From a bacterium (lineage in GTDB: Bacteria > UBA8248): a stretch of 64,000 bases of DNA. The stretch spans positions 1,152,001-1,216,000 of the forward strand of contig OZ241996.1 of assembly GCA_965204535.1 (NCBI GenBank). Direction: 5' to 3'. Shown one piece after another: positions 662-6,953 of this stretch; position 1 is the stretch's first letter, and each line of letters opens with the position of its first letter. The notes beneath the pieces were generated by a model. The model was not told the origin of the DNA and did not search any database. It worked only from the letters and a program-made list of their open reading frames with translations. A program made the position numbers and the translations under genes.

Positions 662-728
662 GCCGGGCCTCCTCCGTTCGTTGCGGAAACGAAAAACGCG
701 GGAATTATATACTTTAGTGCCTTAATGG

Positions 729-1004
729 TTATTCCCCTAATTTAGCATTGAATTTCTCTTCGAGTTTGTTGTCTATGACTTCTTCCAATCGTTTGAAGAA
801 TAAATCCATAGTCCCTTTATTTTTTTCACTTGTTCCACGAAGTGCACGATCCACGAACAATGCGCTTTGCATTTCTAAAATCAATTTTGCCAAATAATCA
901 GTTCTTTCATTTATACATTTTTCTAATTGAAGATATGCTTGTTGTATTTCAGACATGTCATCCTCCAGCTTCTTAATCCGTGCTTCTAGTTTTCCATCCA
1001 TCAT
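729..1004 (-). CDS. hypothetical coiled-coil protein (IS passenger)
   Basis: 91-aa ORF with AAGGAG RBS and heptad-like pattern. Confidence 0.6.
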   Translation of the reverse strand: MMDGKLEARIKKLEDDMSEIQQAYLQLEKCINERTDYLAKLILEMQSALFVDRALRGTSEKNKGTMDLFFKRLEEVIDNKLEEKFNAKLGE

Positions 1005-1057
1005 TATTTATACTCCTTTTCAGTTAATGAAAATTCTACAAATTCTGAAAATAATAC

Positions 1058-1086
1058 TTGACAACTCCGGCACCATCTAGTATAAT
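1058..1086 (+). promoter_or_regulatory. consensus sigma70 promoter of the transposase
   Basis: TTGACA (1058-1063), 17-bp spacer, TATAAT (1081-1086); AGGAG RBS before ATG 1114. Confidence 0.85.
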
Positions 1087-1113
1087 TGTGTCATTGAATA
1101 GGAGAAAGAATCA

Positions 1114-2052
1114 ATGGCACAGAAAGCACCAGGCAAGGCATTCAGAGAAGGCATGAGCATCATGGATGCAATGAAGATGTTTCCCGATGATGCAACCGCC
1201 GAAAAGTGGTTCATCGAGAAACGATGGCCTGTTGGCGTATGTTGTCCTGAATGTGGCTCCTTGAATGTTCTCACTGGCGCAAAGCACAAGACAATGCCTT
1301 TCAGGTGTCGTGAAAAGGAATGCGGCAAAAGGTTCAGCGTTCGCACTGGAACAATCATGGAATCTTCAAATCTCGGATATCAATTATGGGCTATGGCTCT
1401 TTACTTCTGCCTCACCAATCTCAAGGGCGTATCCAGCATGAAGTTACACCGAGACCTTGGGATTACCCAAAAATCCGCTTGGCACTTGACTCATAGAATC
1501 CGAAAGGCACTTGAATCAAATAGTGGATTTTTTGATAGTCCAGTAGAAATCGATGAGACTTATATTGGCGGTTTGGAAAGGAACAAGCATAAGGACAAGA
1601 AACAAAATGCCGGACGCGGCGCAGTAGGCAAATCCGCCGTAGTTGGTATCAAGGAGCGGAAATCCAACAAGGTTAAGGCCAAGGTGGTAGAAGATACAAA
1701 GAAAGAAACCTTGCAGGATTTCGTGAATGAAAACGTGGAAGGTGAAGCCGAAAAATACACTGATGAAAATCGTTCATACAGGGGATTGAATAACCACAAG
1801 AAGGTGAACCATAGCATGGGAAAGTGGGTGGACGAGATGGCTCATACAAACGGCATTGAATCCTTCTGGTCAATGTTCAAGCGAGGCTTTCATGGGACCT
1901 ATCACAAAATGAGCCATAAGCATTTACAACGATATGTCGATGAATTCTCTGGAAGGCACAATATCCGTAGTCTTGATACAATCAAGCAGATGGAGGCTAT
2001 GGTAAATGGCATGGACGGGAAGCGACTCAAGTATAAGGATTTGGTGGCTTAA
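1114..2052 (+). CDS. IS1595-family (ISXO2-like) DDE transposase
   Basis: Zn ribbon CPECG...CREKECGKRFSV; VEIDETYIGG, YTDE, HTNGIESFWS, KHLQRYVDEF motifs. Confidence 0.95.
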   Translation: MAQKAPGKAFREGMSIMDAMKMFPDDATAEKWFIEKRWPVGVCCPECGSLNVLTGAKHKTMPFRCREKECGKRFSVRTGTIMESSNLGYQLWAMALYFCLTNLKGVSSMKLHRDLGITQKSAWHLTHRIRKALESNSGFFDSPVEIDETYIGGLERNKHKDKKQNAGRGAVGKSAVVGIKERKSNKVKAKVVEDTKKETLQDFVNENVEGEAEKYTDENRSYRGLNNHKKVNHSMGKWVDEMAHTNGIESFWSMFKRGFHGTYHKMSHKHLQRYVDEFSGRHNIRSLDTIKQMEAMVNGMDGKRLKYKDLVA

Positions 2053-2053
2053 A

Positions 2054-2230
2054 ATGTCGAAGAAAAAGACGAAACAAAAATTGCCGGTAGTTGAAATCGT
2101 GAAATCGACGTATCAGCCTTCCAAGGCCGAACAAGAAAAAGAATTTGACTTGCCGAAAATGACGCTAGATGAAGCGGCGGAACGATTGTTGCGTCCAGTG
2201 CAAATACGTCATACGGACAAGCCGAAATAA
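2054..2230 (+). CDS. small basic protein immediately after the transposase
   Basis: ATG 1 nt after the transposase stop; MSKKKTKQKLPVVEIVKSTYQPSKAE..., 58 aa. Confidence 0.65.
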   Translation: MSKKKTKQKLPVVEIVKSTYQPSKAEQEKEFDLPKMTLDEAAERLLRPVQIRHTDKPK

Positions 2231-2255
2231 ACTCATTTCTCGTATAAATAGGTAT

Positions 2256-2477
2256 ATGAATACACACACTCTACCAAGAAACAAAAAAGAATTAACAGAA
2301 TTGATGGAAAGAACCGGAGAAGTGATTCCTAGAGATTGTTTTCCTGATGAAGAATCTTACGCAAAGTTTCGCCGAGGATTAGTTGCACTTGGCGAACTTG
2401 ATTATCATGGTCTGACTGATGAATATAAGGAAATGTGCCAGAGGGAGTTCGAAGGCCAGCTTGATGATCTAAAGTAA
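2256..2477 (+). CDS. hypothetical protein (IS passenger)
   Basis: 73-aa ORF MNTHTLPRNKKELTELMERTG..., AGGT upstream. Confidence 0.5.
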   Translation: MNTHTLPRNKKELTELMERTGEVIPRDCFPDEESYAKFRRGLVALGELDYHGLTDEYKEMCQREFEGQLDDLK

Positions 2478-2600
2478 TAAGAAAATCATTTATGGTTGGT
2501 TCAAACCGAGGAAGGGAAACAATAGTGGCGGCAAGTGCTCCAATGAATTTTTCTACTGCTTCTTGACTAAATTGGTTCTTGTTTGTCTCTTCATTATTCA

Positions 2601-3038
2601 TCATTTTTCGCTCCTGAAAAGTGATTCAATAGTTTCAATCTCAATACCTTCGTTATATTTGTCTACTTGATTCGGAATAGTGAACAAGTCGATGAACCAC
2701 CAGATGGCGTAAACAAACAATCCTAAAAAACCAATTGCCGCTAGAAACATTCCCTCGGACAATTCTTCGCCATATGAAACCTGGGAAGCCGGATCAATGC
2801 TCATGATAAGACCTATGAAAAGAAACCAAACGGCAATGGATGGCGCAATTACGTATAAAATTCCTGCCCAAATTCTACCGAGATAGAACTTGTGAATTCC
2901 AAGGAAACTTAAAAAGAACCATAGAACATAGGTCAGGCCAACGGATTTTTTCCTTCGTTCGACTTCACTTTGCAAAATATGAAATTCCCTATCATCAAGT
3001 TCCTTTTTCATGGCTATTAGATTTTGGGGACGATTCAT
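2601..3038 (-). CDS. TM2/NINE-domain membrane protein
   Basis: KKSVGLTYVLWFFLSFLGIHKFYLG and WWFIDLFTIP motifs. Confidence 0.85.
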   Translation of the reverse strand: MNRPQNLIAMKKELDDREFHILQSEVERRKKSVGLTYVLWFFLSFLGIHKFYLGRIWAGILYVIAPSIAVWFLFIGLIMSIDPASQVSYGEELSEGMFLAAIGFLGLFVYAIWWFIDLFTIPNQVDKYNEGIEIETIESLFRSEK

Positions 3039-3604
3039 GATGATGTTTCCTTTACGGGAGATTCTTTTCTAAACCAAATCCGGCTTTCTCTGGTGAAAGC
3101 AAATACTATGGCGATGCATTCAAGAAACAATCGAGCAGTTTGAGATATTTCCAAAAAGTTCAAGGAAACAAGTCCTGATGTAATTTCTGATATTTGAAGT
3201 GTAAAAGAAAGAATGGAAAATCCAGAAATAATGACGATGATCCATTTAGCGATATTGCTTCTCTTCCGTGAAGCGAGCAGACACAATATTGCTATGCTTC
3301 CATACACAAAAAGCAAAATTCCTAATTGAAGAAAAATGGATATTTCTACTTCAGGACGCATTTCGGGATAACGAACATATATTTGCAATTCTATGAATAG
3401 TGAAAGTAGATACGCGGCCTCGAAATTTTTGATTGACTGAGGTCTTTTATCCTGTTCTTCTTCCAATCTTTCTTGTTCTTCTTTCAATATTTGTTTTTGT
3501 TGTTTTTCTTCCTTCCATCCATCTTTTAATTTTCGATTGCGTTCTCGCGCTTCCCGTTCTTGACGTTTCCACCAAGGTTCTTGTTCTTCTGGTTTTTTGG
3601 ACAT
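3035..3604 (-). CDS. hypothetical membrane protein (charged N-terminus, about 4 TM)
   Basis: Start MSKKPEE with GAGG RBS; hydrophobic segments; ATGA overlap with the TM2 gene. Confidence 0.7.
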   Translation of the reverse strand: MSKKPEEQEPWWKRQEREARERNRKLKDGWKEEKQQKQILKEEQERLEEEQDKRPQSIKNFEAAYLLSLFIELQIYVRYPEMRPEVEISIFLQLGILLFVYGSIAILCLLASRKRSNIAKWIIVIISGFSILSFTLQISEITSGLVSLNFLEISQTARLFLECIAIVFAFTRESRIWFRKESPVKETSS

Positions 3605-3628
3605 GATTGCCTCTATGACAATAACATT

Positions 3629-3790
3629 CCCGGCTTTCCAACAAGGCCGGGCCTTGGCTACCATCACAGAGAGAAAGTGAAGTCTCGCCTATTTACCTTT
3701 TGTTCGGGGAGCTACCCCAAACTAGGTACGAAGGCTTTTGTATTCAGCGAGTGACCCGACGTGCGGTCGGAATCCCTCTATGATGGTAGC
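3629..3790 (-). ncRNA. candidate structured RNA, copy A of a three-copy family
   Basis: Closing stem GCUACCAUCAUAGAG/CUCUGUGAUGGUAGC; inner hairpins; core GGUCACUCGCUGAAUACAA shared with copies at 30393 and 32289. Confidence 0.6.
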
Positions 3791-3798
3791 TGGAAAAG

Positions 3799-3828
3799 AT
3801 GGTATGTGAGGTCGAATGTTAAAGTCAA
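3799..3828 (-). promoter_or_regulatory. sigma70-like promoter of RNA copy A
   Basis: TTGACT, 18 bp, TACCAT on the minus strand, 8 nt before the closing stem. Confidence 0.6.
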
Positions 3829-3937
3829 GATGCTATCAAACGGGGAGAAGTGAAAATGCGTATAAATAAATATAGGACTCTGGAAGATTAGGAAAGAAAT
3901 TGAAGAATATTTTTAGGCACTATTGTATATAATTCCC

Positions 3938-3968
3938 AAAACGCCCCTCGAAAACGGGGGCGCATTTC
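3938..3968 (-). terminator. likely intrinsic terminator of the deiodinase-like gene
   Basis: CGCCCC...GGGGCG hairpin followed by a T-run on the minus strand; the IS inserted at its tail. Confidence 0.55.
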
Positions 3969-3982
3969 AAAGACGAATTTCG

Positions 3983-4675
3983 CTAGATAGCCGTGTCGGC
4001 GCGAGCGGTGAAGATGGTGTGCTCCATCCTGGGCATCCCCTCGAACTTGGGATCCTCGTTCACCATCCCGGCCAGATATTCATCCACGTGCTCCGCATTC
4101 GACCACGTGCATTTGTAGGCCACTTTCCCATCTTTGCCGATGAGCCAGATGGTGTTCGGCAGGTCCCCGAGCATGGCGTGCACCTTCTGGTCCATTTCGT
4201 CGACGAGGATGTTGGTTTCCATGTTCTTTATTTCGGCCAGCTTCTGGGCGTAGCTTCGCTTGTGCTCGTAGGATTCGTGGTTTCTGATCTCGGGGAATCC
4301 GCGCTCGCCCGCGTGGGGTTCCCTCACGTAGAGATTGAAGACGGCCACGTCGCGATCCGCATATTTCTCCTGCAACTCTTCGTAAAACGGCACCTGCCGC
4401 CTGTACGGCGGTCACGTGATGGCGCCCGTGGTGATCACCACGTATTTCTTGCCCAGATAATCCGCCATGCGATGGACGTTCCCGTGAATGTCCTTGAGTT
4501 CGAAGTCGGGGAAGGGGGCGCCGGGAGGAAGAACGTCCGGGAATTTCTCATAAAAACTTTTGACCCGTTTGCTCGTGACGAGTTTGATGGTCTTCCACAG
4601 GTTCAGATACTGCCAGGACCAAAAACCCGCCAGCGGCCCCCAGGGTTTGGGGACGGAATCGTTAGCCGGCCTCAT
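3983..4675 (-). CDS. selenocysteine-containing deiodinase-like (thioredoxin-fold) protein, 230 aa
   Basis: ORFs 4412-4675 and 3983-4393 are in frame across TGA 4412-4414, giving TTGAIT-U-PPY (deiodinase GSCTUPPF), plus YVREPH motif and a downstream SECIS. Confidence 0.9.
4381..4407 (-). promoter_or_regulatory. bacterial SECIS element
   Basis: CGUA(C)AGGCGGC-AGGU-GCCGUUUUACG stem-loop; apical loop starts 16 nt after UGA and resembles the E. coli fdhF AGGUCU loop. Confidence 0.8.
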
Positions 4676-4872
4676 ATGAAATGACTCCTCTGCGATGTAC
4701 GCTTGATTGTATGATGGTGTGTAAGCCCGCTATTTGTTTACCCAATCGCAGAGTGAAACACAACCGCCAAGAAGTGGGAACGGAAAAAGGTTCCTGGGGG
4801 GTGAATTTTGCGAATTTTTTTCACATTGTTTTTCAAAATATTTTGTCATTTATCTAAAGTAAATTGTAGGGA

Positions 4873-5030
4873 TTAAAAATCGAACGACAGCTGCGGCTCT
4901 TTTTCCCCCGAAGCGCCTTTTGGGGGATGTTTCGAAGAATCTTTCTCTTTGCTTTGGGTGCGCGGCGGTTTTGTCGGGGTTTCTTTGCGCTGGCATCTCT
5001 CGGCGGTGTCGCGCAGGGTACGCAGAATAG
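4873..5030 (-). pseudogene. diverged duplicate of the 3' end of the 6156-6953 protease gene
   Basis: Encodes KPPRT...SSKHPPKGASGEKEPQLSFDF*, matching KPPRT...SSNHPQKGASGEKEPQLSFDFK*; no 5' part. Confidence 0.8.
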
Positions 5031-5175: not shown

Positions 5176-6102
5176 TTACGTGGATACCTCCAGAAACCGC
5201 TTTATAGCTTGTATGATACGTTCCGGTGCGTCCTCTTGAAGGAAATGACTCGCCTCCTCCAACTCATGCGTCGTTGCATGGGGATAAAGCTGTTGCCACA
5301 TGCGCAACACCGCAGGGGGAAGCACCGGGTCCTGCATACCCCAAACCAAGAGCACCGGGATATGCTGGAACTGTGTCAAGCCGTTCTCGATTTGTTGCAT
5401 CTCCGCGTAGGATTCGTCACTTGCCGTGACGGGAATATCGCGTGACCAGCACAGAAGCGCACGCCTGGATTCTGGTGTGCGGAACGGGGCTAGGTAGGCA
5501 TTCAGGACGGTCTCCGTGAGGTGGTTCGAATGGGCGGTCGTTCCCATCAACGCGGGTTTCACATAGCCATTCTTGCCCATAATAAAGGCTTCCCCACGGG
5601 GTGAGCGGATGAGTTCTATCAGCCGTGGCAACGGTCCCCCCGGCCACCGCGCGAACGCCCACGTATTCATCAGGATTAGCCGTTTCAAGCGGCTGGGATG
5701 TCGGATAGCGAAGCCCAGACCGACCGGCCCTCCCCAATCATGGACGACCAAGGTGATGTCGCGTAGTTCCAACCTCAAGATGAGCGTTTCGAGATTGTCA
5801 ATATGATGCCGGAGCCGATACGGATATGGGATTTCAGGCACGCCGGACTTGCCCATGCCCATGTGGTCGGGAACAATGCACCGGGCGTATTTGGAGAGGG
5901 ATGGGAGAAAGCGCCGATAGAGATAACCCCAAGTCGGGTCGCCGTGCAACAGGACCAGTGGGTCTCCTTCACCCACATCCACATAGTGCATTTGAAAGGA
6001 GTCCAGTTCCACATAGTGGGGCTCAAAAGGAAACGTCCCGTCAAAGTTCGCCTCTCTGAGACCAAGCACACGTCTGTTCCTTCCAATTCTCTTCCTGCTC
6101 AT
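5176..6102 (-). CDS. haloalkane dehalogenase family alpha/beta hydrolase (HLD-III/OleB-like)
   Basis: HGDPTWGYLYR, PDHMGMGKS, nucleophile motif VVHDWGG, ASHFLQED. Confidence 0.85.
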   Translation of the reverse strand: MSRKRIGRNRRVLGLREANFDGTFPFEPHYVELDSFQMHYVDVGEGDPLVLLHGDPTWGYLYRRFLPSLSKYARCIVPDHMGMGKSGVPEIPYPYRLRHHIDNLETLILRLELRDITLVVHDWGGPVGLGFAIRHPSRLKRLILMNTWAFARWPGGPLPRLIELIRSPRGEAFIMGKNGYVKPALMGTTAHSNHLTETVLNAYLAPFRTPESRRALLCWSRDIPVTASDESYAEMQQIENGLTQFQHIPVLLVWGMQDPVLPPAVLRMWQQLYPHATTHELEEASHFLQEDAPERIIQAIKRFLEVST

Positions 6103-6155: not shown

Positions 6156-6953
6156 CTACTTAAAATCGAACGACAGTTGCGGTTCTTTCTCGCCGGAAGC
6201 GCCTTTTTGGGGATGATTCGAAGAAATGTCTTCTTCTCCTCGGGTGCGCGGCGGTTTTTGGGGTGACTTCGCTTCTTCAGGCCTCGCATGGGTGGGGAGT
6301 TCAGATTCCCCCGGCGGGGGCCATCTCGGCTTTCTCGTTTCAGGCCGGGACGCAGCGTTCGGCCTCCCCGGCTCCTGAGAGTCGTTTCTCGACTTGAGGT
6401 CTGCGGCCGCCATTTCAAATGCCCTCGTCAAATTTTCAGGTTTTTGCCAGACGGCTTCTTGCGAGGATGCCCGGCCCCCGCCCTTCATGCGCATGAGTTT
6501 GGCTTTCAAATCCTCGATGCGCGCGTAAAAGCCGGGGCTGTGGGGCGTGGAGGGGATTCTGAGAAATTTCCGGTCGATGTGGTGCATGAGTTCGTGAATG
6601 AGTGTATCCAGAAACGTCTTGCCCGCGACGATCTGTTTGCGGATAGACGTGAGATTTGCGATTTCGATCATCGCGTTTCGGCAGTGGTAGACGCCGTAGA
6701 GCTTGTAGGCGAGTTTTCCTTCATACATTTCGTGGGGCTGCCGCTCGTTGATCACGCGCAGGCGCGCCCGCGGGATTTTGAGGCTTCGGCAGATGTTGTC
6801 GAGCAGTTTCTGGCCCAGCGCTTCGCGCTCGCTCGCGCTCGTGGATTCGATGAGCTTTCTGGTGAGTTCACGCTCCTCGTCTGCCGGTCGGTATTCGAGC
6901 GCCGGGAATTTGTTGGAGCGCGTGAAATCCGGTGTATTGCGGCGCCTGCCCAT
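6156..6953 (-). CDS. SprT/WLM/YgjP-like zinc metalloprotease with disordered tail
   Basis: TLIHELMHH...PHSPGFY zinc motif; terminal QLSFDFK. Confidence 0.75.
   Translation of the reverse strand: MGRRRNTPDFTRSNKFPALEYRPADEERELTRKLIESTSASEREALGQKLLDNICRSLKIPRARLRVINERQPHEMYEGKLAYKLYGVYHCRNAMIEIANLTSIRKQIVAGKTFLDTLIHELMHHIDRKFLRIPSTPHSPGFYARIEDLKAKLMRMKGGGRASSQEAVWQKPENLTRAFEMAAADLKSRNDSQEPGRPNAASRPETRKPRWPPPGESELPTHARPEEAKSPQKPPRTRGEEDISSNHPQKGASGEKEPQLSFDFK

Follow-up and report, generated by a model that had tools for sequence, protein, structure and literature searches.

One reading frame across an internal TGA

A stretch of the minus strand of the window (the whole 64,000-nt piece of DNA analysed here) raises the question of whether a TGA between two open reading frames ends a gene or encodes selenocysteine (Sec) within one, and, in the latter case, what the encoded protein might do. 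The ORF list presents the locus as two ORFs, at 4675-4412 (87 aa) and 4393-3983 (136 aa). Both lie in one frame, ...VITTGAIT*PPYRRQVPFYEEL...NLYVREPHAGE..., with a single internal TGA at codon 88 (4412..4414, minus strand; context VITTGAIT*PPYRRQV), which we infer to be read as Sec; the YVREPH motif falls on codons 116-121. An earlier, sequence-only reading had joined the two fragments through the TGA into a gene at 3983..4675. This was confirmed, with the strand now assigned as minus: 4675-3983 is one intact gene of 230 codons plus a TAG stop (3985-3983), as indicated by its translation and by selection on both sides of the TGA. Frame and stop position were identical in 29 related loci, and the median dN/dS against the window gene was 0.105 for codons 1-87 (23 of 27 pairs, four saturated ones having been dropped) and 0.091 for codons 89-230 (27 of 27 pairs), with L050 and L056 excluded from the pairs because of their length. 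A 253-aa plus-strand ORF (3923-4684) was taken as a shadow ORF, since stops break it in 15 of 29 relatives.

A Shine-Dalgarno-like GAGGAG (4684..4689, minus strand) lies 5' of the ATG, and GGAG occurs there in 29/29 related loci. Just past the stop, a terminator-like GC hairpin is followed by four U residues (3941..3963, minus strand; fold −17.7 kcal/mol, z −1.6). A promoter and terminator scan returned nothing above chance and did not call this hairpin at 3941..3963. Because most same-genus loci have a hairpin and a longer U-run after the stop, the deiodinase-like gene is probably transcribed alone. Standard annotation pipelines split the gene, as had been anticipated: none of 60 matches exceeded 59% query coverage, and 84 close matches of 86 were half-gene fragments. 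The immediate consequence is a correction of annotation, since protein collections represent a gene found in 48 of the 51 genomes of the phylum only by halves labelled hypothetical.

Coding status of the internal TGA

The genome carries the full selenocysteine machinery, namely a tRNA-Sec (selC) scoring 75.9 bits (cut-off 47) together with selA (572.8 bits), selB (389 bits) and selD (331.5 bits), all above their curated cut-offs. The selD gene of this genome has a TGA at its own catalytic position. At one related locus (L056:6001-10101), the deiodinase-like gene is arranged tail to tail with selB-selA, at a distance of about 40 bp.

Codon 88 was TGA in 32/32 genome copies, which comprised the window gene, both paralogues from the same genome and 29 related loci from genomes (56-98% identity). 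Of 55 metagenome loci fetched, five do not reach the site and the other 50 all have TGA there; a few of them duplicate the genome set. Distant homologues were taken as the best 150 matches of an exhaustive search, and in the 134 that span the Sec site the corresponding residue was Cys in 124, Ser in 5, Gly in 3, Asp in 1, Arg in 1 and Trp in none. The expectation that homologues should carry Cys here, rather than Trp or Arg, was thus borne out. A tree built by a quick method, with neither animal deiodinases (Dio) nor an outgroup, requires six changes of the Sec label and is compatible with one origin or several.

Translation of the TGA as Trp was rejected, because long coding-like ORFs in this genome end in TGA more often than in any other stop (636/1,453) and release factor RF2 is present. 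An internal UGA that encodes selenocysteine at the active site is very likely on these sequence comparisons.

A hairpin downstream of the UGA

We then considered the RNA element that would direct such recoding. A SECIS-like hairpin, AGGCGGC-AGGU-GCCGUUU, lies at 4385..4402 (minus strand), with a stem of 7 bp and a conserved core of 5-6 bp plus the loop. The bacterial SECIS model calls for a loop of 3-9 nt with G in one of its first two positions, located 16-37 nt past the UGA, on a stem of 4-16 bp (PMC13188914, as given in the accessible sections). The hairpin conforms to it with a 4-nt loop, G as the second loop base and a 7-bp stem, and its loop begins 16 nt after the UGA, so that it stands at SECIS distance as the sequence-only reading had noted. 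The minimum-energy fold of 60 nt consists of 4 bp, a bulged C, 7 bp and the AGGU loop. Hairpin stability was rejected as proof of a SECIS, given that the folding z-score was −1.2 and that an equally stable, model-conforming hairpin follows 39 of the 636 ordinary TGA stops of the genome. What raises the hairpin above chance is the universal TGA in the genome and metagenome copies, the Cys that aligns with it in distant homologues, and the pattern of synonymous variation in the adjoining codons.

Among 28 orthologues, the third base was invariant in only 10 of 215 degenerate codons, and six of these are consecutive, at codons 91-96. The third base varies, by contrast, in each of the other conserved Arg (7), Val (11) and Pro (14) codons. 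These comparisons provide strong evidence for a constraint at the RNA level that falls exactly over the hairpin (codons 91-96). Codons 173-177 also showed little variation, but this proved to be an artefact of changes in the amino acids.

Conservation of the stem itself was followed in an alignment in which 22 of 31 rows had been chosen by a pattern requiring TGA. The five inner pairs were formed in 22-28 of 28 distinct sequences, giving a consensus of 5 bp, and compensatory, double-sided changes occurred at three of six upper pairs in the same 28 sequences. Upper-stem cells were paired in 86% of cases, a value reached in 0/500 shuffles and compared with 59.5% in a +1 slide control. Covariation was 0.269 against 0.106 in shuffled alignments, although the +1 slide control came close, at 0.238, and relatedness inflates such tests. 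The lower four pairs behaved differently: one never varies and involves positions fixed by the amino acid, and three were formed in only 10-18 of 28 sequences; the A13-U30 pair was formed in 2/28. The 11-bp extended stem was therefore rejected as a conserved element. The 11-bp stem with a bulged C and AGGU loop that had been described earlier does exist in the computed fold, but its conservation is limited to the upper 5-7 bp. Right after the UGA, a 5-bp hairpin, CCGCC/GGCGG (window 4397-4411, minus strand), overlaps the 5' arm of the SECIS and competes with it; a ribosome positioned at the UGA would melt this competitor.

The opposing interpretation is that the TGA is a true stop, the locus being either a pseudogene or two genes, the second with codon 95 (GTG) as its start. 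All close relatives have GTG or TTG at this codon, and gene callers split the locus there; the hairpin is also weak when taken alone, and the Sec reading draws on sequence rather than on protein-level data. However, splitting the locus leaves neither half with a catalytic residue, dN/dS is ~0.1 on both sides, Cys aligns with the TGA, and the distant TGA-bearing homologues L150, L151 and L159 have no start codon at the position of codon 95. Moreover, the hairpin loop and its closing pair account for GUG or UUG at this codon. A true stop, or readthrough as Trp, is accordingly very improbable, and it is almost certain, in our judgement, that SelB would bind the AGGU hairpin and insert Sec88.

Family and fold

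Three Pfam models matched the protein above their cut-offs: AhpC-TSA (45.6 bits), T4_deiodinase (PF00837, 40.7 bits against a cut-off of 27) and Redoxin (40.6 bits). The best NCBIfam match was NF038285, ‘deiodinase family protein’ (E 1e-20, residues 54-189), but membership of this family was rejected at 74.5 bits against a cut-off of 250, for a model 347 positions long. With a single query sequence, two TlpA-like proteins ranked above Dio3. Family profiles gave a different order, with mouse Dio3 (1e-26) and Dio2 (9e-21) followed by ResA (6e-14), and Dio3 came first in both profile searches. A structure model of the protein (pLDDT 92.8) aligned best in VIA-align with Dio2 (9h48; Z 17.7, rmsd 2.8, 161 aligned) and Dio3 (4tr3; Z 17.1, rmsd 2.6, 163 aligned), although 2ls5, an uncharacterised thioredoxin-fold protein, ties with them at Z 16.9, within one Z unit. 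Foldseek placed ResA first by E-value, and among the rows listed Dio3 and Dio2 had the top query TM-scores (0.59 and 0.58). Identity to Dio is 21-23%. The label ‘deiodinase-like’ was therefore well chosen, with PF00837 above its cut-off and Dio3 and Dio2 as the best solved matches. The motif match claimed with it is close and inexact, GAIT-U-PPY standing against GSCT-U-PPF and YVREPH against YIEEAH.

The encoded protein is predicted to be a soluble thioredoxin-fold enzyme. No transmembrane segment was found, the peak 19-residue hydropathy being 0.65, at residue 70. Codons 1-47 (4535..4675, minus strand) encode a soluble N-terminal helical extension with a PxGPxxGxWSWxY motif and helices modelled at residues 18-22, 26-34 and 36-47; within it, G13, P14, G17, W19, S20, W21 and Y23 were invariant in 10/10 sequences. 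Animal deiodinases differ in having an N-terminal transmembrane anchor. Their activity requires a homodimer.

A common thioredoxin-like core links the protein to the TlpA/ResA redoxins and the BCP/AhpE peroxiredoxins (Z 15-16.9). Peroxiredoxins are defined by PxxxT/SxxC and a catalytic Arg, and TlpA-ResA redoxins by CxxC. These motifs are absent from the window protein, which has ITTGAITUPPY at the active site (with I81 and A85) and T175 at the catalytic-Arg position; conversely, TlpA/ResA and BCP/AhpE lack its YxxExH and second-His elements. With bacterial PF00837 selenoproteins, in contrast, it shares the in-frame UGA aligned with Cys, a bacterial SECIS and a PF00837 score above cut-off. The PF00837 example of the 2026 review is a UxxC protein and the window protein is UxxY, with no second Cys; since Cys occurs at +3 of the Sec site in only 11/134 homologues and Dio itself is UxxF, UxxC was not taken as defining. 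What sets the window protein apart within this class is its own soluble N-terminal extension, and, for its subgroup, TGA forms alone were found. We conclude that it belongs with the bacterial deiodinase-like selenoproteins and lies outside the iodothyronine deiodinases proper.

Such proteins have a history. Bacterial deiodinase-like proteins, both Sec- and Cys-containing, were described in 2005 from the Sargasso Sea, along with a guess at a different redox function (Zhang et al. 2005, PMC1088965), and a 2026 review, in its accessible sections, still counts theirs as a family of no known function (PMC13188914). The earlier statement that the class is known in bacteria and its substrate is not was therefore right as far as these sources go. 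Among mostly non-subscription papers, represented by listings and the beginnings of abstracts, we found no characterised bacterial deiodinase-like member. The available portion of the BSepDB paper names three UBA8248 genomes among the ten richest in selenoproteins, one being the L050 record, with 54 genes, and that portion of the main text does not mention ‘deiodinase’ (PMC13326102). Neither ‘deiodinase’ nor ‘UBA8248’ occurs in the one of its supplements that was searched, of about 4 million characters; the BSepDB database may already contain the deiodinase-like gene family. The window gene thus adds a member to a class predicted since 2005, in a lineage already listed as selenoprotein-rich.

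The active site compared with animal deiodinases

The window protein and Dio have in common the T-U-P-P-aromatic motif and the deiodinase insertion in the fold. Tyr116, Glu119, His121 and His133 (codons 116-133; 4277..4330, minus strand) match Dio3 Tyr197, Glu200, His202 and His219, and T87 matches Dio3 Thr169, the Dio3 numbers having been computed from the Sec170 offset in the profile alignment. T87, Y116, E119, H121 and H133 were invariant in 10/10 sequences. Among the best 150 distant matches, 9-11 of which do not span each given site, the equivalents of Thr, Tyr, Glu and the first His were kept in 120, 130, 132 and 131, respectively, and the second His in 88. Pro173 occupies the position of Dio3 Phe258, as in Dio1, and A85 that of Dio3 Ser167, a change tolerated in DIO1. 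Dio3 His219 we take to be DIO1 His174. In the part of the DIO1 study available, the Thr125 hydroxyl is essential, Ser123Ala has reduced activity and His174Gln is inactive (PMC9141512).

Other Dio features have been lost. Both resolving Cys are replaced, the proximal Cys168 by I86 and the distal Cys239 by T154, and the only other Cys of the window protein, C189, is Ala or Ser in other genera. The proximal Cys of DIO1 is reportedly needed for glutathione recycling only (PMC9141512), and Dio2, which lacks the proximal Cys, is described as active with DTT (PMC11592359, accessible text). Similarly, the Glu/Arg/Lys-Arg site proposed to hold the amino-carboxylate in Dio (PMC11592359, including section 3.3, in the text available) has changed: Glu259, Arg260 and Arg275 correspond to Asn174, Thr175 and Trp191, the last by ungapped extrapolation. 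The equivalents of Asn174 and Trp191 were kept in 125 and 119 of the best 150 distant matches. A further difference from animal Dio is that the SECIS of the window gene lies in the coding region. Retention of Thr/Tyr/Glu/His/His, together with loss of the anchor, the resolving Cys and the tail residues, points to an enzyme that would work in a deiodinase-like way and is not an iodothyronine deiodinase.

Proposed chemistry and its alternatives

By analogy with Dio1 and Dio3, we propose that the protein may be a thiol-driven aryl de-iodinase or de-brominase that acts reductively on a halogenated aromatic compound, the reading that we rank first, with a probability of roughly 0.45. In the proposed mechanism, the Sec88 selenolate would halogen-bond to an activated aromatic ring and abstract I+ or Br+, Thr87-Glu119-His133 would deliver a proton back to the ring, and an external small thiol or a partner redoxin would directly reduce the oxidised Sec to regenerate the selenol. 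Direct reduction is suggested by the lack of both Dio resolving Cys. The genome, 95.7% complete, has one GCS2-family ligase, matches to mshC and gshB that fall below cut-off, and no match to bshC. The exchange of the Glu/Arg/Arg tail site for Asn174/Thr175/Trp191 suggests a halophenol or a halogenated diaryl ether as the substrate, rather than a halotyrosine or thyronine. Animal deiodinases are reported to debrominate polybrominated diphenyl ethers (PBDEs) (PMC7144113, text available in part).

Deiodination of halogenated amino acids (iodo- or bromotyrosine, or thyronine-like compounds) by a selenoprotein working in the manner of Dio, with the tail held by other residues or by the N-terminal helices, would account for the TUPPY/F motif and the relay that match Dio2 and Dio3. 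Such an active site could be capped by the conserved N-terminal extension, which is basic and aromatic. Set against this is the replacement of all three Dio tail residues, with the substituting Asn and Trp themselves widely kept among distant matches. By this comparison, halotyrosines are less likely substrates than halophenol-type compounds, and we regard a Dio-style amino-acid deiodinase as unlikely.

The main rival to an aryl dehalogenase is a selenoprotein with a general redox role, that is, a reductase with a single Sec acting on peroxides, on hypohalous acids or halamines, on sulfoxides or on mixed disulfides, in which the deiodinase-type network just tunes the Sec. The conserved network could indeed be structural or serve other substrates, and the thioredoxin/peroxiredoxin-type fold has many near-equal matches, AhpC-TSA among the Pfam models. 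The gene stands alone, most of the phylum's genomes have 2-4 paralogues, and the Dio substrate-tail residues are absent. The Cys clan of the family proved very widespread in the exhaustive search; given this and the near-universality of the gene in the phylum, a general redox job fits as well as a niche substrate. A redox function was also the proposal of Zhang et al. in 2005 (PMC1088965, in the part available). Against this role, the protein has neither CxxC nor UxxC and lacks the peroxiredoxin motif and catalytic Arg, the Tyr/Glu/His/His set that it has in common with Dio was not seen in the TlpA-type rows of the homologue alignment, and family profiles put Dio3 first. We consider a general redox role a serious possibility.

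The aryl-dehalogenase reading can be extended, more tentatively, to a soluble Se-dependent aryl reductive dehalogenase that would use neither B12 nor flavin, would employ the full animal Dio relay on iodo- or bromophenols or halogenated diaryl ethers, would occur as several UGA-hidden paralogues across the phylum, including sponge-associated members, and would represent the ancestral chemistry of the thyroid-hormone deiodinases; this broader proposal we hold to be rather doubtful. Sponges are rich in organohalogens, and aromatic dehalogenation, if true, would be an added route in marine halogen cycling. The protein offers a handy test case for the 2005 question of bacterial deiodinase-like function, being small, predicted to be soluble and intact in its Dio relay, with natural paralogues and Cys homologues available for comparison, whereas animal deiodinases are membrane enzymes. 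Many of its relatives in the family would do just as well.

Distribution and genomic context

Within the phylum, 48 of 51 genomes contain a match at E ≤ 1e-15. Most of these carry 2-4 copies, and a TGA lies inside all listed matches of more than 100 bits that span position 88. Close relatives also occur in records titled Nitrospinota or Tectomicrobia from other environments. Metatranscriptome contigs cover the gene at 89-96% identity, one of 711 nt spanning 4015-4703, and paralogue-like contigs were found as well; three of four runs compared are labelled sponge metagenome. These contigs indicate relatives in the libraries, not expression.

Among close relatives, the surroundings of the gene include genes for an enoyl-CoA hydratase-like protein, a Gfo/Idh/MocA protein, an M24 peptidase, an LLM oxidoreductase and a DEAD helicase. 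This synteny is absent around distant orthologues and around paralogues, and 20 further family loci, whose ORFs were read by eye, show no common pathway. Across the 32 loci and these 20, no conserved neighbour points to dehalogenation or to a substrate. The upstream haloalkane-dehalogenase-like hydrolase gene (5176-6102; 209 bits against a cut-off of 241) was rejected as a functional associate, since among the 32 loci it occurs only in the window and L028. It is flanked by two 97-bp copies (4876-4972 and 6162-6258, 83.5% identical) of the upstream gene's 3' end, L033 and L040 have other inserts at the same spot, and the hydrolase gene is a recent arrival. The link with a downstream DinB/MST gene, seen in 20/32 loci, was not counted either, as these loci are all close relatives and most have a terminator-like hairpin between the two genes.

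In the window, the deiodinase-like gene and its usual DinB/MST neighbour are kept apart by a 3.2-kb low-GC insertion (700-3937; genes of 34-45% GC) that L028 does not have. The insertion begins within the U-run of the terminator-like hairpin and contains an IS1595 transposase gene (1114-2052), a TM2-domain gene (2601-3038) and orphans.

Paralogues and variant family members

The same genome (G000) has two more deiodinase-like genes with an in-frame TGA, L026 and L027 (C2:1144997-1145608 and C2:105729-106343), 40-41% identical and each with its own hairpin; a genome-wide PF00837 search listed only these two, at 65.5 and 52.1 bits. One of them lies upstream of LLM-type and flavin-reductase-like genes (read by eye). 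Elsewhere, two different paralogues stand in tandem on one strand (L088:6981-8436 in G039, and G038:C50:9946-11422). Copies at L106:5630-5965, L100:6691-7341, G004:C1:4762519-4762854 and G001:C1:92636-93251 appear broken or decaying, being interrupted after residue 116-130 or, in L100, having lost Glu119 and Pro173 and carrying an AAGU loop.

At L107:6203-7396 (G012), tandem thioredoxin-like genes have GSSSDWG at the active-site position of the one and GSST-TGA in the next; the GSST-TGA gene is a further selenoprotein candidate, with redoxin- and DsbD-like ORFs downstream (read by eye). In L151, L159 and L160, TGA-bearing deiodinase-like domains occur as fusions with EF-hand-like repeats and, at the C terminus, a CxxC thioredoxin domain, and Cys versions of these fusions occur in P0106, P0146 and P0163.
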